From Candidatus Nanoarchaeia archaeon (GTDB lineage: Archaea > Nanobdellota > Nanobdellia > CSSed11-243R1), in assembly GCA_028713895.1 (NCBI GenBank), contig JAQTNH010000001.1, positions 157,050 to 189,049 of the forward strand: DNA of 32,000 nucleotides, written 5' to 3'. Within the stretch, counting starts at the first letter, position 1. Each line of letters starts with the position of its first letter. The translations under genes were made by a program, and so were the position numbers. Shown here in pieces: positions 12,056 through 23,764 of this stretch. The notes below the pieces were generated by a model. That model saw nothing but the letters and a program-made list of their open reading frames with translations, did no database searches and was not told the origin of the DNA.

Positions 12056-12127
12056 GGGCTAGTGGCGCAACGGTAGCGCGTCCGCCTTGCACGCGGGAGG
12101 CTGAGGGTTCGAATCCCTCCTGGTCCA
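12056..12127 (+). tRNA. tRNA-Ala (anticodon UGC), no intron, CCA not encoded
   Basis: Hand-folded cloverleaf: acceptor gggctag/ctggtcc with the G3:U70 alanine identity pair; D stem gcgc/gcgc; anticodon stem tccgc/gcggg with loop ctTGCac; T arm gaggg-ttcgaat-ccctc; discriminator A. Confidence 0.92.
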
Positions 12128-12130
12128 CTA

Positions 12131-14590: not shown

Positions 14591-17550
14591 GAAAAATATG
14601 CGCTACGCTATTAGGTGAATGGCTAGGCTCCAGAACTGAAGAAGGACGTGGCAAGCTGCGATAAGCTTCGGGTATCCGCACGCAGGATAAGATCCGAAGA
14701 TTTCCTAATGAGACTTCTTGGTTCTTAGTAATAAGAATCACTCGCATTGCGAGAGGGAACTCCGTGAATTGAAACATCTTAGTAACGGAAGGAAAAGAAA
14801 TCTATGAGATACCGTTAGTAACGGCGAGCGAAAGCGGTATAGGGCAAACTGAATCTGCCAGAGTAATTTGGTAGACATGTGGTGTTTGGAACTGCGTATA
14901 TTATCCTTGATTACAAGTCGAAGTCGGCTGGAACGCCGTACCTTAGAGGGTGATAGTCCCGTAAACAAAAGAAAAGAGGATAATGCAGTTTCCAGAGTAT
15001 ACGGCGTTGATATTCGTCGTAGAAAGTGGGTGGCAACGACATCTAACCCTAAATATTCCTGGAGACCGATAGCAAATTAGTACTGTTAAGGAATGCTGAA
15101 AAGGATCCAGAAATGGATGTTAAAAGAACCTGAAACCTAGTAGTTACGGTAATATGCGGCCAAAAAGGTAAATTCTACAGCTACGGCTCTAGAATTTTTT
15201 CCATGGTTGCATTATTCCTGTCGGAAAAAGAAGCAGGGAGTTTGTCTATGTGGCAAGGCTAAATGTAGTTATACATGGAGCCGAAGCGAAAGCAACAAGC
15301 ACGCAGGTGACAAGGTGCGGGGTATGAAAATGCCTGTAGTCACATGGACCAGACCCGAAGCGCGGTGATCTATGCCAAGTTAGGATGAAGTGGGAGTTAA
15401 TTCTCCCATGGAGGTCCGAAGAGGTTCTGCCTTACAAAGCGTTCTCATGAACTTGGTATAGGGGTGAAAGGCCAATCATACCGCGAGATAGCTGGCTCCC
15501 TCCGAGATGTACCTAAGTACAGCCTCGACTGAGTATGATAAGAAGGTAGAGCGACTGATAGGCCATTTAGGAACCGAAAGGTTTCGGTGGCCAGTCAAAC
15601 TCCGAATTTCTTATCTACGTAGAAGTCGGGAGTGGGATTGTCGGGGTAAGCTTGACAAACAAAAGGGAGAGAACTCTAACTGTGGTTAAGGTCCCTAAGT
15701 TCTAATTAAGTGAATCAAACTTTGTTATAAACCAAAAACAGCCGGGAGGTAGGCTCAGAAGCAGCCATCCTTCAAAAAGTGTGTAACAACTTACCGGTCT
15801 AGGTTTATAGCGGGAAAAATGGACGGGTCTAAATTAGACACCGATACCACAGAGAACACCTTATAGGTGTTATTTGGTAGGGGGGCGTTCGGCATGGGTA
15901 GAAGCTGGGTCGTAAGAACCAGTGGACCGTGTTGTATTGAGAATCCTGCGGGTAGTAGCAGCATAGATAGGTGAGAATCCTATCCGTCTTAAGAGCCAGG
16001 GTTCCTCGGCAATGCTTCGTCAGCCGAGGGTTAGTCGATCCTAACTGCAACGGTAAACACAGTTGCGGGAAAGGGAAACAGGTTAATAATCCTGTACCAT
16101 TTGGATACGTTAGGTAACTAAAGTCAGACAATGACGCTTTCGGTTAGGTGGAGTACAACCATCGTTGTATTTAACCAGTATAGTTCCAGGGAGTTCTGTA
16201 ACAGAGAGATCTGGAATAAACTGGGAACAGCTTGCGTATGTGAGTTCCATTGAAACCAAGAGCCCGTGAAAAATTGTTCTGAAAGGACTCCAAGTGTTCG
16301 TACCAAGATCCGGGACAGGTGTCTCGAGCTTAGAAGGCTAAGACGTGTGGGGACAATTTAGTCAAGGGAACTCGGCAAAATAGCCCTTTAACTTAGGGAT
16401 ATAGGGTGCCTGCGGCAGTGATTTTCGAATTGTTGTTGCAGGCCTCAGAAACCAGGGGAATCGGACTGTTTAACAAAAACATAGCTGATTGCTAATCGGA
16501 AACGACTTGTACAATCGGCGACGCCTGCCCAGTGCAGGTATCCGAACATGAGTTTCAACTCGTATAAGGACCTGTAAACGGCGGAGGTAACTGTAACCTT
16601 CTTAAGCAAGCGCAATGCCTTGCCATTTAATTGATGGCTTTGCGAACGGCGTAACTAGATTCCCACTGTCCCTGACTAAAGCCCCGTGAACACACTATTC
16701 TGGTGCAAAGGCCAGAGAGCCCCATTGGGACGACAAGACCCCAGGAGCTTTACTACAGCCTGTACTTGTGATTCAAATTTTTCTTTATAGAGTAAGCAGG
16801 AGAGGTTATGCGTGCATCGCAAGATGTACGTTACTCGAAAGTGTAACACTGCTATTAAGAGTTTGGGTTGCTCATCTCATATTTAGTATGGGAAACACGT
16901 ACTGGTGGGTAGTTTGGCTGGGGTGGCACGCCATCGATAAGAAATCAATGGCGCCCTAAGGTCAACTCAATCGGGTCAGAACTCCGATATAGAGTGTAAA
17001 GGCAAAAGTTGGCTTGACTGTTTTTGAAAAAGATTCAAAAGCAGGTACGAAAGTAGGGCTTAGCGAACCGCAATATCTCTTTCGTTGAGTGTTTGTGATG
17101 ACAGAAAAGTTACCCTGGGGATAACAGAGTTGTCGCCTACGATAGCTCATATAGACTAGGCGGCTTGCTACATCGACGTCGGCTCCTCCCATCCTGGTTG
17201 TGCAGCAGCAACCAAGGGTACGGGTGTCCACCGGTTAAAGGGGGTCGTGAGCTGGGTTCAATACGCTGCGAGGCAGTATGGTTTTTATCTAGTGGGGCTG
17301 TTTGGTGACTGAGTGGAAGATGGTATTAGTACGAGAGGAACATACTATCGGCGCCTCTAGTAAACCAGTTGTCTGATAAGGCAGAAGCTGGGTAGCCACG
17401 CGTCAGCGGATAAATGCTGAAAGCATCTAAGCATGAAGCTGCTCGCAAAAAAAGTCACTTACAGGGCTGCGGTAGAAGACCGCGTTGATAGGATCGGGAT
17501 GTAATTTCGTAAGAAGCAGTCCACGATTACTAATCGCTCTTTGCATATTT
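14591..17550 (+). rRNA. rrl: 23S (LSU) rRNA, archaeal
   Basis: ggtgaatggctaggctc..gaagaaggacgtggcaagctgcgataagc near the 5' end; gggataacag..catcgacgtcggctc (peptidyl-transferase region); agtacgagaggaac (sarcin-ricin loop). Ends pair as aaatatgc / gcatattt. No large intron or ORF noted. Confidence 0.95.
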
Positions 17551-17553
17551 AGT

Positions 17554-17575: not shown

Positions 17576-17591
17576 TATCGTTATATTTTAA

Positions 17592-17629
17592 TTTTTCTTT
17601 TTCTAAAAGAAACATTAATTAAAGAAAAC
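17592..17629 (+). terminator. T-rich hairpin + ACATTA element (copy after 23S)
   Basis: tttttctttttctaaaagaaacattaattaaagaaaac. A second ACATTA box, aaacattaatgaaaaagaaac, lies at 17667-17687. Confidence 0.5.
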
Positions 17630-17907: not shown

Positions 17908-18498
17908 ATGGCATACAACTTAAAAGAACTCACAAAAAAAATAAATGGCTGCACCCGCAGCGAAAAACATCTCAAACCGGATGAATCTGAAGACATGCAG
18001 AGGGCTATCAAGGATTATTTTGCGGAAAACATAACAAGGCTCAGCAAACAAGAATTTGAAAAGATTACAGAAGTGGGGAGCTATCATATAGACTTAAAAA
18101 AACTTTTTATCTCAGAGTACACCGAAAATGTTGTAAAGCCCTATATCATCAGCCAAGCAGAAAAACGTCCTGGCAAAAATTTCCACCCTGCTGAATTCAT
18201 CAAGTATCTCAAAATAAAGGAACTTCCTTTTGTGGCTGTAGCAAGGGCAACAAGCCAGCTCTGCAATGAGCGGGACACGGACTTGGTCAGTGTTATAGAA
18301 CTCAACAGCAAGAAATACTATCGTTACGACCCTGAATGCGCAGAACTGATGAGGGGGCCCATAGTCCGCCAAAAAACCAGCTGCCGCGGAGCCTATTGCA
18401 ATACGAACAGATGCCCAAAAAACAAGCCAGTCCCATCCCAAGAGAGCGCCAAAGTCCTGCCTGAAAGCCAGAGCTGCGAAACACTTATAAATTCTTAA
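17908..18498 (+). CDS. winged-helix + C-terminal four-Cys tail protein, paralog A (196 aa)
   Basis: ..FHPAEFIKYL...FVAVARATSQLCNER..LVSVIELNSKKYYRYDPECAEL..(x)..CRGAYCNTNRCPK. Shares this architecture with 19492, 20637 and 21251. Confidence 0.85.
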   Translation: MAYNLKELTKKINGCTRSEKHLKPDESEDMQRAIKDYFAENITRLSKQEFEKITEVGSYHIDLKKLFISEYTENVVKPYIISQAEKRPGKNFHPAEFIKYLKIKELPFVAVARATSQLCNERDTDLVSVIELNSKKYYRYDPECAELMRGPIVRQKTSCRGAYCNTNRCPKNKPVPSQESAKVLPESQSCETLINS

Positions 18499-18516
18499 CT
18501 AATAGGTAGTTACAAT
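18484..18516 (+). promoter_or_regulatory. 33-bp perfect repeat copy 1: TATA + TAACTA-n5-TAGTTA palindrome
   Basis: cttataaattcttaactaataggtagttacaat is identical to 21629-21661. It overlaps the stop codon of the upstream gene. ATG 18531 follows 15 nt later, after an SD-like gggtg. Confidence 0.7.
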
Positions 18517-18530
18517 TTAAGGGTGCAATA

Positions 18531-19463
18531 ATGAACTATGGCGAACGCGAAAAATTAGAGTCTATCTTAAGGAGTTTCACAGACGAACTCAGATGCCCGA
18601 GGACTGATAAAAAACCCAGGGCACCGGAAGAGTTCAAAACTGTTGAGGACAAAACTGCTGTGTTTGGTAGGAATGACATGCTGCGTTATTATAGAAAAGG
18701 CGAACTGGAAAAAAGATACCAGCTTGCTTTTCCCGACTTACAAAAGGGTGATTATGTTGCCATTGGCGTGCGCCTTGGCATGGGCAGGGAAATCATATTC
18801 AGCCTAGAAACCTTAGATGTGGTTGACTACATAATGAGCCTGGAAAGTGCTGTTCTAAAAGCGCTTGCCAAGCTCAAGCAGAACTATTATTCTGCAGGAC
18901 TATGTGAACCAGAGATGGCTAAAGAAAGGGCATTCCTTGAGGATTCTGTCAAATTCCTGAAAGACAATGTTTACATGCCAAAGAGTAAAGACGAGATAAA
19001 GACTGGCGCCAGACTTGATGTTTCAAATAGCTACCTTGAATATCTGCTGCGAAACCATGCACAAATAGGCTTCTGGGGGGTAGACCGAAACATTGTGATG
19101 CTGGACAACATAGGCCCTTCCTTTGTTTACAATCCAGGGCTTGTGCAGGAGCTTGAAAAAAAGAAGTGGACTTACGATGAAGAGTTCCCAAAAATCAGGG
19201 ATGTGTTTGACAAAAAAGAGAACCAGGACGAGCTGCTACGGCTGCTGGAAGAAAACAATAACGGGATTGGAGACAAAAGATTCAAGGGGATGCCTGCCCA
19301 AACATTGTTTGAAATTGTACTGGCATATCTGAAGAATGGATGCGGCTGCTATGAATACAGCAAGAAAAAATATCTTGAACGGTTTGAAACAGCGCTATTG
19401 TGCCCTATAAAAACAACAGAACCTGCAAATGAACAAAAAAAGCACTTTTTTATGGATATTTAA
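18531..19463 (+). CDS. hypothetical protein (310 aa), long paralog of 21662-22213
   Basis: GFWGVDRNIVMLDNIGPSFVYNPGLVQELEKKK aligns with GILTFDRSGMLKVWDNNLSLYCWNPGYVKRLEARQ of the 21662 protein. Confidence 0.85.
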   Translation: MNYGEREKLESILRSFTDELRCPRTDKKPRAPEEFKTVEDKTAVFGRNDMLRYYRKGELEKRYQLAFPDLQKGDYVAIGVRLGMGREIIFSLETLDVVDYIMSLESAVLKALAKLKQNYYSAGLCEPEMAKERAFLEDSVKFLKDNVYMPKSKDEIKTGARLDVSNSYLEYLLRNHAQIGFWGVDRNIVMLDNIGPSFVYNPGLVQELEKKKWTYDEEFPKIRDVFDKKENQDELLRLLEENNNGIGDKRFKGMPAQTLFEIVLAYLKNGCGCYEYSKKKYLERFETALLCPIKTTEPANEQKKHFFMDI

Positions 19464-19491
19464 GAGGATATGAAACAGGAGACGCAACAAA

Positions 19492-20598
19492 ATGGATGAT
19501 TCGCTTTTAAAAAAGCTGGCAATGGCATCAAAAAAAGTTGAAGCCAGCAGGAAGACTCCAAAAGCCAAATTGAGCGAGATGCGCCATAGTGCAAGAGAAA
19601 TTTTAGCCGAGTACTTCGGGAGTCCTGTGCGCCTGACTCCAACCCAGTATAATGCTGTAACAAAAATTCTTTCAGACTATCCCGGCCTTTTGAATGACGA
19701 GTTCAGGCCAAACTATCTGAAATTTTTTATGTACCCGAGCGTAACCAGCTTTCTTGAAAAAAATCAGGACAACCTTTTTTGCACAAAAGAGCTTATCAAA
19801 AATATAAAGCTAAACGAATTTAGTGATTACATTGTTACAAATGCAATGACAGGGCTAAGCGAATCAATTGACAGCGACATTATCGCAAAGTACAATGGCA
19901 GCCATATAAAATCATACAAACTCAGCCCGGAATGTGCAGAAGCGCTGAGGTTTGACTGGATATCCCACAAGCCAGTGTGCAGAACAGAGTGTGAAAGCGA
20001 CGAATGCCCAAAGAAAAAAGCAGAGAGAATAATAAACACGCGGCTGATTACCAAAAAAAGGCTTGCCTGTGAATGCGAAGCCCTGCAAGAGTCCAGCCAG
20101 GATGAAATCTGGGAGTATATCACAGGCGACAAAAGGGGCGAAACAAACATGTTCACCCTCTTTGGAGTCGCACAAAGGTTTTTGGCTGCAAAGGATTATG
20201 AGAACGCAATAAAATTTTATGAGAAAGCCCTTAAAAGCATTGAAGAAGTCAGGAAAACAAAACCTTCTGATGAAGGGCTCAAGCATGTTGAATACGAAGT
20301 CCTTTGCAAACTCGGGCAGTCCTATCCAGACATGAGGGACAATAAACATTCAAAAAAGATAATTGAAAACGCAATGCATCTTGAGCCAGGGAACGCATAT
20401 GCCCACCTGATTAACCTAAAACGCATTCTTGAAAGCGGGGAACAAAAAAAGATGCCCGACTCAAAACTTTTGTATTTTCTTGAAGGCGACGATGCAATCC
20501 TTACGCATGAAGTGTTTAAGCAGGCAAAGATTGACACAGCCATAAAGGTGTTCAAACTGCCTGGAAAAGAAGGGGCGGCTAGAAAAATTTATATTTAA
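19492..20598 (+). CDS. winged-helix + four-Cys tail protein with a C-terminal TPR-like extension, paralog B (368 aa)
   Basis: ..SYKLSPECAEAL..(x)..CRTECESDECPKK, then AAKDYENAIKFYEKALKSIEE and LEPGNAYAHLINL, which look like TPR helices. Confidence 0.85.
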   Translation: MDDSLLKKLAMASKKVEASRKTPKAKLSEMRHSAREILAEYFGSPVRLTPTQYNAVTKILSDYPGLLNDEFRPNYLKFFMYPSVTSFLEKNQDNLFCTKELIKNIKLNEFSDYIVTNAMTGLSESIDSDIIAKYNGSHIKSYKLSPECAEALRFDWISHKPVCRTECESDECPKKKAERIINTRLITKKRLACECEALQESSQDEIWEYITGDKRGETNMFTLFGVAQRFLAAKDYENAIKFYEKALKSIEEVRKTKPSDEGLKHVEYEVLCKLGQSYPDMRDNKHSKKIIENAMHLEPGNAYAHLINLKRILESGEQKKMPDSKLLYFLEGDDAILTHEVFKQAKIDTAIKVFKLPGKEGAARKIYI

Positions 20599-20636
20599 TT
20601 TAGCGATATTGTTTGATGAGGTTTTGGAGGAAGTCT

Positions 20637-21173
20637 ATGCAGGGGAGCTCTCTTGAAAAAATGCTGGACAAGGGCGCATTATGGCAAAGGAAGAGAAGAA
20701 AAGAGACAGAGGAGAAGATGCGGAAATATATCCTTGACAACAACATACAAAGATTAAACAAAAAAGAGTATAACCGCACCATAAACAGCCTGAGCAACGG
20801 CTTGAAATCACGAGTGATAAGCAAGGCGTTTGGGAAAATGTACGCTGATATTGTGCTTAAGCCTGTGTTTCTTGGGTTCCTGGAAAAAAATTCTGGGAAC
20901 ACCTATTCTGTCAGAGAACTGATTGAGGATATAGGAATTTATGAGGTATCTGTTGGACGAATCAGCTGTGCGCTTAGTGATTTGTACAGAAGAATTGACA
21001 ATGACGTAGTACAAGTAAAGCGAACCACAACCGGGCGGATGAATTACTACAAACATGACCCTGGCTGCGCAGATGCACGCAGAATCGGGCACAAAAAATG
21101 GTGCTGTTATGAAGAGGACTGCAACACAAAGTTCTGCCCAAAAACAAAGCCGGGAATGCAAGCAAAAAACTGA
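20637..21173 (+). CDS. winged-helix + four-Cys tail protein, paralog C (178 aa)
   Basis: ATG 20637 is preceded by GGAGG (20626-20630); the TTG at 20613 in the ORF track is less likely. ..NYYKHDPGCADARRIGHKKWCCYEEDCNTKFCPKTKP. Confidence 0.85.
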   Translation: MQGSSLEKMLDKGALWQRKRRKETEEKMRKYILDNNIQRLNKKEYNRTINSLSNGLKSRVISKAFGKMYADIVLKPVFLGFLEKNSGNTYSVRELIEDIGIYEVSVGRISCALSDLYRRIDNDVVQVKRTTTGRMNYYKHDPGCADARRIGHKKWCCYEEDCNTKFCPKTKPGMQAKN

Positions 21174-21217
21174 TGCGATATCTGCAGAATCATCATACTT
21201 TTTTAGTTCAATCAACA

Positions 21218-21229
21218 AAATTTAAATAG
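21218..21229 (+). promoter_or_regulatory. TATA box for 21251 gene
   Basis: aatttaaatagg lies about 26 nt upstream of ATG 21251, so the gene looks leaderless. Confidence 0.45.
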
Positions 21230-21250
21230 GGTAATTTTTCTAATGGTTTC

Positions 21251-21619
21251 ATGGCTGAGATGGGTTTAGAGCGAAGAGTGAATGCCGCTGAAATGCCTGC
21301 TGCGGACGAAGCTGAACTGCTGAAATTCTTTAGCAAGCATCCGGGCGAAGTTTACACTGCAGAAAGTGTTGCTGAACTGCTGAAGAAAAAAGATGCGGGC
21401 GCGGTAGATAAAGCGCTTGCCATGCTGAGCGAACGAACCGACAATTACATAGTCATACTGCGCAGTAAGGATGACAAAAAAGCGAGCAGCTACAGGTATG
21501 ACAAGGACTGCGCAGAAGCACAGACGCGCGAAGACAGGAAAATCAGCTGCTGCATGCTTGGCGAATGCGGAACAACCAGCTGCCTGCGGGAATACCAAAA
21601 CTGCCATTCAAAAGAATGA
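21251..21619 (+). CDS. short winged-helix + four-Cys tail protein, paralog D (122 aa)
   Basis: LLKFFSKHPGEVYTAESVAELL...VDKALAMLSE..YIVIL (winged helix), then SSYRYDKDCAEAQTREDRKISCCMLGECGTTSCL. Confidence 0.85.
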   Translation: MAEMGLERRVNAAEMPAADEAELLKFFSKHPGEVYTAESVAELLKKKDAGAVDKALAMLSERTDNYIVILRSKDDKKASSYRYDKDCAEAQTREDRKISCCMLGECGTTSCLREYQNCHSKE

Positions 21620-21628
21620 TTCGAAATC

Positions 21629-21661
21629 CTTATAAATTCTTAACTAATAGGTAGTTACAAT
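21629..21661 (+). promoter_or_regulatory. 33-bp perfect repeat copy 2: TATA + palindrome
   Basis: Identical to 18484-18516. ATG 21662 follows immediately, so the gene looks leaderless. Confidence 0.7.
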
Positions 21662-22213
21662 ATGAATAAAGACTTAGAAGAATCGGTAACCTTTTTCGGA
21701 ACAATAATTCCGCAACTGGAAGAGATGGATGTCACAGACAGGGACGGCATGTGGCTTGAGGGAATAATCAGCCTCCTGAAAAGAAACCCGCTGCAGACGT
21801 GGACAGCCACCAATATAGCCAGCCGGATAACCAAGGATGGCAAGGCGTACAGGCAGAAAATAGGCGAGCTTGCAACAGACCATTGCAAATACGGAATCCT
21901 GACATTTGACAGGAGCGGGATGCTTAAGGTATGGGACAACAATTTATCATTGTACTGCTGGAACCCTGGTTATGTAAAGAGGCTTGAAGCCAGGCAAAGA
22001 AAGCTCCTGGATTTTGACAGGCATGCTGAAGCGTTCATGGAAAATGAGCAGGCCACCCTGAATGCACTTGTTGAGCTGCTTCCGGCTCACAGAATAGACC
22101 CAAAATGCGCACAAATGGTTTATGATTATGTTACAGTCTATATTGAGTCAAATGGGGTGGCGCCGCACGTGACCAATTTGCAGGAATACAGGCAGAACAA
22201 GCTGCCGCATTGA
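21662..22213 (+). CDS. hypothetical winged-helix-like protein (183 aa), short paralog of 18531-19463
   Basis: IISLLKRNPLQTWTATNIASRI...KYGILTFDRSGMLKVW, plus the shared NPG[YL]V motif. Confidence 0.85.
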   Translation: MNKDLEESVTFFGTIIPQLEEMDVTDRDGMWLEGIISLLKRNPLQTWTATNIASRITKDGKAYRQKIGELATDHCKYGILTFDRSGMLKVWDNNLSLYCWNPGYVKRLEARQRKLLDFDRHAEAFMENEQATLNALVELLPAHRIDPKCAQMVYDYVTVYIESNGVAPHVTNLQEYRQNKLPH

Positions 22214-22227
22214 GTTCTGAATGGCAA

Positions 22228-22238
22228 ACTTTAAATAC
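22228..22238 (+). promoter_or_regulatory. TATA box for RNase P RNA
   Basis: actttaaatac is centred about 25 nt upstream of the paired 5' end at 22258. Confidence 0.45.
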
Positions 22239-22257
22239 TTCATTTTGTATAGCTACC

Positions 22258-22601
22258 ATGTGGGTGAGTGGTTGACTACAGATGCTGATTAGGTAATCAG
22301 TATTTAGGAAGCTTCGTCCATCAGCCCTTTTCGCTTCGCGCAAGCGCTGGCGGAAACGGGTGTATGTTCACCATGGCAACATGTCTCCGGAAACGGAGGG
22401 CTCTGACGCAGAAAAAAACTGCTCTTTGCGCAGAATGAGGCCGAAAGGCTGACATTGCAAAGAAACAGGTGAAATCGTCAGCCTGAACGATGCAAGGGCT
22501 TTGACCTGCTTAGTCGAATGTCAACGCGCCTGTCTAAGACGGCAAATGAGGTGAATATTTGCCTGAGGGGCGACAGAAGACGAGCTATAGCTCACCCACA
22601 T
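22258..22601 (+). ncRNA. rnpB: RNase P RNA
   Basis: Termini pair (atgtgggtgag 22258-22268 / ctcacccacat 22591-22601, P1). CR-I-like AGGAAGCUUCGUCC (22306-22319) and CR-V-like ACAGAAGACGAGCUAU (22573-22588) form P4 (agct-U-cgtc / gacgagct) with the conserved bulged U. P3-like hairpin ctgatt-aggt-aatcag. uuagucgaaug resembles CUAGAUGAAUG of bacterial RNase P. Confidence 0.8.
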
Positions 22602-22604
22602 AAT

Positions 22605-22670
22605 CTTTCTTTTCCCGAAAAGAAACATTAGTGAAAGAAAAGGGATTTGAAAGCATTAATGGAAGAAAAC
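22605..22670 (+). terminator. T-rich hairpin + ACATTA element (copy after RNase P RNA)
   Basis: ctttcttttcccgaaaagaaacattagtgaaagaaaagggatttgaaagcattaatggaagaaaac. Confidence 0.5.
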
Positions 22671-23108: not shown

Positions 23109-23282
23109 ATGGCAACAGACAAGAGCAAGGTAAGACTGCCTTCAAGCAGCGGCGGAATAATGCAGTATTACGACGAATACTCAAGCAAACTGCACATATC
23201 GCCGTGGCACGTTATAATATTGGTGGCAATTGTGATGGTTATTGTAATACTGCTCAATGCGTTGAATCCTTTCGGGCTGTAA
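23109..23282 (+). CDS. secG: preprotein translocase subunit Sec61beta/SecG (57 aa; not in the ORF track)
   Basis: MATDKSKVRLPSSSGGIMQYYDEYSSKLHISPWHVIILVAIVMVIVILLNALNPFGL has the conserved P-S-S-x-G-(L/I)-x-x-Y-(Y/F)-D-E motif plus a C-terminal TM segment. The 67-aa ORF 23099-23302 in another frame is rejected. Confidence 0.8.
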   Translation: MATDKSKVRLPSSSGGIMQYYDEYSSKLHISPWHVIILVAIVMVIVILLNALNPFGL

Positions 23283-23317: not shown

Positions 23318-23764
23318 ATGGATATACGAAAAATAATCTTCGGCGTTATGGTTCTGCTGTTTTTGGTTACTCTTTTTGTTCCAGTAAAAGGCGTGCCTGA
23401 AGAAAAAAGGTGTTCAGGCGACAGTGAATGCGAGTTTGTGCGGACTGTTTGCTGCCAAGGATGTTCAGGCGGATTTGACTCTGTAAATGTCGAGTTCTCA
23501 ACAAAGATGAACAATGACATGCTTTTGAAATGTAATGACACTGACTGCCCGCCGAATTACTGCGAGGGTCCGTATGGGGAAGCGTATAAGGCGGTTCCAA
23601 AATGCATAAACGGCGAGTGTTCAGTCGGGGATTCGCTCAAATGCACTGCTGTCTGTTCTTATTATGCGAAAAATAACACGGCGCCGTACAAAGTATACTT
23701 CAGCAACATCGCAATCGCAGAAGGATTAAGCCAGGAAGCGCTGATTGATAAGTGCGAGTGCTAA
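23318..23764 (+). CDS. secreted/membrane-anchored cysteine-rich protein (148 aa)
   Basis: N-terminal signal/anchor IIFGVMVLLFLVTLFVPV, then about 15 Cys in a ~120-aa domain that ends ..DKCEC. Confidence 0.75.
   Translation: MDIRKIIFGVMVLLFLVTLFVPVKGVPEEKRCSGDSECEFVRTVCCQGCSGGFDSVNVEFSTKMNNDMLLKCNDTDCPPNYCEGPYGEAYKAVPKCINGECSVGDSLKCTAVCSYYAKNNTAPYKVYFSNIAIAEGLSQEALIDKCEC

Follow-up and report, generated by a model that had tools for sequence, protein, structure and literature searches.

The window analysed here is a stretch of 32,000 nucleotides (nt) from a Candidatus Nanoarchaeia archaeon (assembly GCA_028713895.1, contig JAQTNH010000001.1, positions 157,050 to 189,049). Between its 23S rRNA gene and its RNase P RNA gene it carries an array that includes four co-oriented genes, termed paralogs A, B, C and D, whose products combine a winged helix with four invariant cysteines (Cys). 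The overall reading, which is held at about even confidence, is that A-D are undescribed, clade-restricted winged-helix regulators with a metal site made up of one plus three Cys. The paralogy, the fold and the conserved metal-type site are held with high confidence, and a DNA-binding regulatory role is judged about as probable as its absence. The source is a metagenome-assembled genome of the DPANN group and the window sits on a 956-kb contig. The six genes of the array, A-D and two intervening genes termed X and Y, correspond to PHC66_02905 to PHC66_02930 and all are annotated by NCBI as "hypothetical protein". Each of the six proteins forms a singleton or near-singleton cluster at 90% identity.

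All four paralogs are encoded on the plus strand and their open reading frames (ORFs) were confirmed with the coordinates and lengths given in the preliminary description. Paralog A (17908-18498, PHC66_02905) is a protein of 196 amino acids (aa) with N-terminal helices, a winged helix and a tail with the four Cys (Cys4 tail). Its Cys module spans aa 137-169 (nt 18316-18414) with C144, C159, C164 and C169 as ligand candidates. Paralog B (19492-20598, 368 aa) has a winged helix, a Cys4 module at aa 141-172 (nt 19912-20007; C148, C163, C167, C172) and a C-terminal helical region resembling tetratricopeptide repeats (TPR). Paralog C (20637-21173) is 178 aa long from its ATG, the NCBI call being 185 aa from 20616, and its module lies at aa 137-167 (nt 21045-21137; C144, C157, C162, C167). 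Paralog D (21251-21619, 122 aa) is the minimal form, consisting of the winged helix and the Cys4 tail, with the module at aa 80-111 (nt 21488-21583; C87, C101, C106, C111) and an extra C-terminal C-H. The tail motifs first quoted for the four proteins were present; two spacers are one residue shorter than quoted, with 8 residues instead of 9 after CADA in C and 9 instead of 10 after CAEA in D.

The claim that the four genes are tandem paralogs was borne out. Pairwise BLASTP E values were 7e-17 for A-C, 9e-15 for B-C, 4e-13 for A-B, 1e-7 for C-D and 5e-4 for A-D, so that the similarity among the proteins is beyond chance. They align across a common core, the four Cys being invariant in the four-way alignment, and the A and D proteins are approximately 28-30% identical. 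The ortholog of B, P0005, is 60% identical and has the same architecture. The TPR-like repeats attributed to B gave only sub-threshold Pfam scores for its C-terminal half (TPR_8, E=3.5e-5, 24.1 bits against a cut-off of 25.7; TPR_2, 20.2 bits against a cut-off of 27), yet the region is kept in P0005. The ortholog of D, P0003, is 58% identical and is encoded directly after the 23S gene in two related loci, L001 and L002. Beyond the four core Cys, D and P0003 share a CC doublet at ligand position 2 and a C-terminal N/T-C-H-S; this subfamily may have a second or alternative metal site.

Relatives of A-D were sought in an exhaustive HMMER search with a five-sequence profile against 1.84 billion representative proteins. 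At the cut-off of E<=1e-3 this returned 15 proteins, one spurious and 14 real relatives. P0011 (638 aa, eight matched stretches) was rejected as a family member, being a repeat protein. A word-indexed protein search gave only self matches and P0003, P0015 and P0016. Further tandem members were a 197-aa protein of locus L003 (E=8e-8) and a protein of locus L009 (E=6e-6), and the family set known so far comprises about 20 sequences. The four Cys were the sole invariant columns in a 15-member alignment (18-27% identity to A) and again in one of 16 sequences, identity over the two sets being 18-30%. Conservation of the Cys in homologs had been chosen beforehand as an observation on which the description could fall, and they were invariant in every homolog found. 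Strict conservation of four Cys across divergent homologs is the generic mark of a metal site.

The family pattern begins with C-[AS]-x; after 11-15 residues comes C-x(3,4)-C-x(2-4)-C, in most cases with P-K behind it. The consensus reads Y-K-Y-x-P-x-C-A-E-A-x-R, 6 residues, K-x-x-C-x4-C-x-T-x-x-C-P-K. The wing strand ends in Y-x-Y-[DS]-P-x-C-A-E, and the short tail after it is K-x-x-C-[YF]-x3-C-x-[TS]-x2-C-P-K. In the aligned set 11-15 residues separate Cys 1 and 2, 4 residues (3 in B) separate Cys 2 and 3, and 2-4 separate Cys 3 and 4; in the 197-aa L003 member this last gap is 5. Orthologous pairs had a ratio of nonsynonymous to synonymous substitution rates (dN/dS) of 0.25-0.35 with dS of 0.8-1.6, which marks the members as real genes that evolve under purifying selection of moderate strength. 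No related locus was found among the GTDB representative genomes, so the source species and its kin appear to be absent from that set. A search of metagenome contigs yielded the L002 contig alone, which was already known. The A-D family is confined so far to a narrow clade of Nanoarchaeia.

An AlphaFold2 model of paralog C built with the 16-sequence alignment had a mean predicted local distance difference test score (pLDDT) of 90.8 and a predicted template modelling score of 0.83. N-terminal helices were placed at residues 5-34, 42-52 and 58-84, followed by the winged helix, which consists of a short strand, helices 92-99 and 106-118 and wing strands 124-129 and 135-140. The helix at 142-149 starts with D-P-G-C and thus bears the first Cys, and the other three lie in an ordered irregular tail (block pLDDT 83-88) with no helix after it. 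The modelled confidence of the tail fits an ordered site and is not proof of one. In a shallower model of A (pLDDT 72.9) the winged helix agrees with that of C and the tail is disordered. Both models have the helix and strand order H-E-H-H-E-E of winged-helix domains. D and its ortholog are without the N-terminal helices, and the minimal unit is therefore the winged helix plus the Cys tail. Nearly all of the best Foldseek matches were winged-helix domains, with probabilities up to 0.96-0.99, yet with E>0.05. They included Fur/Zur, MarR/ZitR/AdcR, ArsR/SmtB, PadR, the OmpR DNA-binding domain, TFE-alpha and Pol III C82. Comparison with BFVD structures gave generic winged-helix matches only. The winged-helix core recognised in the preliminary description is thus upheld by the model and by the generic structural matches.

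No named family was found to hold the Cys signature, as had been suspected. Pfam, NCBIfam, PHROGs and PADLOC scans of the six array proteins (for PADLOC also of a downstream 125-aa ORF) gave nothing meaningful. When 15 members were compared with Pfam one by one at E<=5, no family recurred apart from faint Trans_reg_C similarity in 2 of the 15. Profiles of 5 and 15 sequences gave nothing below E=0.2 against PDB sequences; alignments to the NUDT12 zinc motif (E=0.23) and to Dpy-30 were judged to be chance and not significant. Nor did any Foldseek match account for the signature. The literature on the CX4CX4C signature consisted of toxin and peptide-library papers only, and a search on DPANN, winged helix and cysteine found nothing relevant. 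As the library, PDB and literature comparisons gave no match, A-D are treated as an undescribed family.

Several known metal-binding families share part of the A-D design. In iron-sulfur (Fe-S) regulators, ligands in the arrangement "3 contiguous + 1 remote" hold the cluster beside the DNA-binding domain (also described in a SufR preprint). Members of this group (IscR/NsrR, WhiB-like, FNR and SufR) are like A-D in being small proteins with a few close Cys and one remote. No Pfam Rrf2, Wbl or Crp match and no PDB match was obtained for the family. Rrf2 regulators have the motif C-x5-C-x5-C, and Fur proteins and zinc ribbons have paired CxxC. The Rrf2 ligand motif C-x5-C-x5-C(-x2-H) with its following dimerisation helix is absent from A-D, in which C-x11-15-C-x(3,4)-C-x(2-4)-C lies at the extreme C-terminus. 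Pfam Rrf2 (PF02082) was not detected in the 15 members at E<=5, nor were IscR, NsrR or RsrR among PDB sequences for the family profile at E<=10. WhiB spacing is C-xn-C-x2-C-x5-C, compared to C-x11-15-C-x4-C-x2-4-C in the family. Unlike the modules of Rrf2- and WhiB-type regulators, the A-D tail is C-terminal to the wing, is only about 30 residues long and has no dimerisation helix after it.

Among zinc proteins, the two CxxC/CxxH knuckles of a zinc ribbon are missing, as the module has no conserved CxxC in the 15 members. Fur and Zur carry a structural Cys4 zinc site C-terminal to a winged helix, and they resembled the family in Foldseek (probability 0.96-0.98, root-mean-square deviation 2.0-2.6 A across 67 winged-helix residues) with non-significant E values of 0.25-1.3. 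The Fur Cys4 site differs in being formed by two CxxC pairs in an alpha/beta dimerisation domain of about 60 residues; neither feature is present in the A-D family and no Pfam FUR match was found. The OmpR/PhoB (Trans_reg_C) family shows a faint resemblance in helix 1-2 of the winged helix, LLxFLxKxPGExYSxxEL. Trans_reg_C matched D and one other member at E=0.01 (16.3 bits, threshold 26.2) and the CadC DNA-binding domain matched at E=0.9. OmpR and SARP regulators differ in having a receiver or BTAD domain, which the A-D family lacks, and a Cys4 tail is not known from the OmpR/PhoB-type family. Some SARP-class regulators join a winged helix-turn-helix with TPR repeats, a combination that paralog B resembles.

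Judged from known families, the metal site of A-D would have about an even chance of being Fe-S and a slightly smaller one of being structural zinc, any other explanation being improbable. Fe-S is slightly favoured over zinc because of the one-plus-three Cys, the lack of a CxxC knuckle and the frequent C-P ending, as in WhiB, FNR and TFEbeta. The conserved core of about 100 residues is the winged helix, which is followed by the short Cys tail. The one Cys at the start of the post-wing helix and the three close Cys of the tail would form a single four-thiolate metal site, and this site would staple the tail onto the winged helix.

Genes X and Y, which were missed in the preliminary description, lie between or after the Cys4 genes and resemble Cys-less relatives of the same winged-helix core. 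X (18531-19463, plus strand, 310 aa) has the wing motif SFVYNPG and Y (21662-22213, plus strand, 183 aa) has the wing motif LYCWNPG. Three orthologs of X were found (37-40% identity), none with a Pfam domain, and the Y ortholog in locus L011 is 61% identical. In hhalign comparisons with the Cys4 family across the winged-helix region X gave E=0.0015 and Y gave E=0.008-0.013. The alignments are in the same register, RNIVML...SFVYNPG of X and ...LYCWNPG of Y being matched to DNDIVxI...SYKYDPECAE of the Cys4 family. On this basis X and Y are probable Cys-less relatives of the Cys4 family. L011 encodes a 213-aa protein ahead of its RNase P RNA gene (1772-2413), and this protein shows homology to X over the C-terminal two-thirds of X (hhalign E=2e-6). 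Its wing motif, YVYDPCFAKY, is between the Y-x-Y-D-P-x-C-A-E of the Cys4 family and the F-V-Y-N-P-G of X.

A conserved promoter precedes both X and Y. Copy 1 (18477-18516, plus strand), upstream of X, has a transcription factor B recognition element, a TATA box and an inverted repeat TAACTA-N5-TAGTTA. Copy 2 (21622-21661, plus strand) abuts the ATG of Y. The two 40-nt copies, at the ends of the A and D genes, are 95% identical and share an identical 33-nt core, a match seen in 0 of 100 shuffles. Equivalent junctions in L001 (1633-1674), L005, L006 and L011 carry the same element. Over six junctions from five genomes there are 28 invariant columns, AAA-N3-TTATAAATT-N-TTAACT-N5-GGT-N-GTTACA. The element is therefore an almost invariant 36-nt TATA promoter found immediately downstream of A-type or D-type genes and before X- or Y-type genes. 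In the D-Y copy the ATG follows the TATA box by about 23 nt, so the Y transcript is probably leaderless; X-type copies have an extra 14-nt leader with a Shine-Dalgarno-like GGGTG. A scan for sigma-70 promoters and intrinsic terminators gave no excess over shuffled controls, these models being uninformative for an archaeon.

The inverted repeat, TAACT-N5-7-AGTTA, lies between the TATA box and the start and occurs at only these two sites in the window. Its arms are kept between genomes and its spacer is variable. The promoter is much better conserved than the adjoining coding sequence and is under selection, given its conservation beside genes with dS of 0.8-1.6. The usual position of an archaeal repressor operator is between the TATA box and the start. 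A-D would act as sequence-specific DNA-binding regulators, for which the conserved X/Y promoter would be the candidate target. Binding of this promoter by the Cys4 protein encoded upstream is a tentative idea. Less restrained still is a proposal, also doubtful, that A-D are a new archaeal class of Fe-S transcription factors in which the cluster would control binding of the inverted repeat or heterodimerisation with X/Y.

The preliminary description had linked the array, as a possible source of regulators, to operator boxes formed by another repeat, and this link was not supported. The palindrome in question, TTAAT-N-TTTCTTTTC-NN-GAAAAGAAA-N-ATTA, has exactly three copies in the window (3036-3065, 17589-17617 and 22601-22630), and its AT-rich arms of about 14 nt are TTAATnTTTCTTTTC..GAAAAGAAAnATTA. 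The copies begin 2-104 nt past the ends of the 16S, 23S and RNase P RNA genes, one each, the 16S copy being 15 kb away from the array. As all three follow stable RNA genes, the palindrome has the look of a 3' element of stable RNAs and not of an operator for this array; it is probably a hairpin for termination or processing. The exact palindrome was not found in the related loci and is species-specific in sequence. Direct repeats like AAACATTAATGAAAGAAAAC occur after the 23S and RNase P copies (17610, 17667, 22623 and 22651). The inverted repeat of the X/Y promoter is a better operator candidate than the palindromes at the RNA genes.

The recurrence of A-X and D-Y gene pairs also bears on an alternative to the regulator reading. 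A-D could be initiation-factor-like or protein-protein winged-helix modules in which A or D pairs with X or Y through the metal domain, as in TFEbeta, the paralogs being alternative subunits that tune basal transcription. TFEbeta has a winged helix and a C-terminal four-Cys [4Fe-4S] domain needed for dimerisation with TFEalpha (PMC4495717). Its ligands are C92, C95, C101 and C112, or C-x2-C-x5-C-x10-C, and its gene is essential in S. acidocaldarius (PMC4495717). The winged helix and C-terminal four-Cys domain of about 35 residues in A-D parallel this arrangement, which is shared by TFEbeta and RPC39 (RPC6, C34), and in architecture TFEbeta is the best analogue of the family. The recognition helix of A-D is weakly basic, Pol III C82 and TFE-alpha were among the Foldseek matches, and one member had a Pfam TFIIE_beta match at E=0.46. 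However, the Cys spacing of C-x11-15-C-x4-C-x2-4-C is unlike that of TFEbeta. There was no weighty Pfam RNA_pol_Rpc34/TFIIE match and no PDB sequence match to RPC6, C34 or TFEbeta at E<=10. TFEbeta is single-copy with a wide archaeal distribution, whereas the A-D family forms a variable multi-copy array in one clade, and a copy number of 1-4 among close relatives with the dN/dS values given above is unusual for basal factors. Nor is pairing a requirement, as neither B nor C has a partner beside it and L003 carries two Cys4 genes with neither X nor Y. The initiation-factor alternative is considered unlikely.

The array lies in an interval whose gene content differs between related genomes. In L001 and L002 the 23S gene is followed by the D ortholog and a 236-aa gene. 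In L003 the order is 23S, the 197-aa member, P0015, RNase P RNA, two genes, Sec61beta, a Cys-rich secreted protein and Tmk. L005 has the 23S gene and the A-like P0006; L006 has an A fragment, an X ortholog, the B ortholog and RNase P RNA; and L011 has an X ortholog, the Y ortholog, the 213-aa X-like protein and RNase P RNA. Family members or Cys-less relatives thus occupy the 23S-to-RNase P interval in every locus that shows a boundary. In its 3' part the 23S gene of these loci shares 89-96% identity with that of the window, which places them all in one fairly narrow clade. From one to four Cys4 genes were seen per locus, which makes the interval a hotspot of duplication and loss. The dense array, which had been called unusual in a small genome, is real and is one state of a variable array in the same interval of related genomes. 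The family would diversify by tandem duplication and loss in this hotspot, alternating with X/Y.

In the window the boundaries of the array, as first described, were confirmed by Rfam. The upstream boundary is the 23S rRNA gene (14591-17553, plus strand; LSU_rRNA_archaea, 2555 bits) and the downstream boundary is the RNase P RNA gene (22260-22599, plus strand; RNaseP_arch, 100.1 bits). This position, which is conserved in all informative loci, is the chief point in favour of A-D being RNA-binding or ribonucleoprotein biogenesis factors for 23S rRNA and RNase P RNA, with the winged helix and a zinc knuckle as an RNA module. The stop codon of an L003 member is 2 nt before the RNase P RNA gene, and archaeal ribosomes and RNase P (Rpp21) commonly contain small zinc proteins of the Cys4 type. 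The entire neighbourhood is syntenic, however, not just A-D, so position beside stable-RNA genes alone is no evidence of a functional link. Each array gene also has a TATA-like promoter of its own. Variable copy number, paralog identity of 18-30% and restriction to a small clade are ill-suited to a core ribonucleoprotein component, and no similarity to ribosomal or RNase P proteins was found in Pfam, NCBIfam or PDB. A role in biogenesis of the neighbouring RNAs is accordingly rated as quite improbable.

Orphan, fast-evolving small winged-helix proteins in variable number are typical of archaeal viruses and plasmids, and the array might also be cargo of an integrated virus, plasmid or mobile element beside the rRNA gene. 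Direct repeats of 36 nt flank the block (17593-17628 and 22606-22641). These were rejected as insertion marks because the same palindrome also follows the 16S gene, which identifies the repeat as a stable-RNA 3' element and not an att site. There was no integrase or mobile-element gene among the ORFs of the interval and no PHROG or PADLOC match for the family core, and the BFVD matches were of the generic kind noted above. No family relatives were found in IMG/VR, in INPHARED phages or in PLSDB plasmids (phages and plasmids by tblastn). The GC content of the array region is like its surroundings and unremarkable (42-46% in 17-23 kb compared to 38-50% over the window), and the same chromosomal site is occupied in at least five related genomes. 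A mobile origin is largely refuted and highly improbable.

A number of points weigh against A-D being DNA-binding metal-site regulators. We infer both DNA binding and metal binding, and the convergence of the four Cys in space is assumed from the model. The structural matches are all non-significant and indicate the generic fold only. Winged helices also make protein-protein or RNA contacts, and the putative recognition helix, such as VAVARATSQLCNE in A, shows no conspicuous basic character. Most family members, A, B and C among them, are basic (pI 8.5-9.6), in contrast to the acidic D subfamily (pI 5.4-5.5). X and Y are weakly linked to the Cys4 family, with hhalign probabilities of 3-17%, and the promoter might owe its conservation just to its strength as a core promoter, with no connection to A-D. 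The window and L003 also share synteny for Sec61beta, the Cys-rich secreted protein and Tmk, and the location by the stable-RNA genes may reflect general conservation of gene order.

Some further features of the region were recorded. The Sec61beta homolog (57 aa) is encoded at 23109-23282 and is followed by a 148-aa signal-peptide-like Cys-rich protein at 23318-23764. Both genes recur in the same order and with conserved sequence in L003, a distant relative (3021-3191 and 3178-3627). The RNase P RNA gene has a conserved CTTTAAATA TATA box approximately 22-24 nt upstream of the mature 5' end GTGGGTGAG (window 22213-22260), and the same arrangement follows the B ortholog in L006 (2262-2330). The 16S rRNA gene (1385-2932, Rfam) is unlinked to the 23S gene, with about 11.6 kb between them containing approximately ten protein-coding ORFs and a tRNA (12056-12127 by Rfam; tRNA-Ala(TGC), 12056-12128 by ARAGORN). 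Pfam comparison of the eight larger ORFs between the two rRNA genes identified one GNAT acetyltransferase and one weak bactofilin (843 aa), and six had no match.

The genomes of DPANN archaea are very small and encode few transcription regulators that can be recognised, and their lineage-specific genes mostly lack annotation. Winged helices joined to Cys-metal modules are a well-known design; the A-D family itself was previously undescribed and now has a precise signature and a candidate target promoter. If the site is Fe-S, A-D would bring a new, archaeal architecture to the short list of Fe-S regulators, and if the doubtful proposal of an Fe-S transcription factor class were true, that class would be a fast-diversifying redox or iron switch for host-dependent archaea with reduced genomes. 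If the site holds zinc, the family would be a new structural variant of the winged helix. With either metal, the array, variable in content and set between two stable-RNA genes, clearly illustrates local gene-family turnover in a reduced genome.

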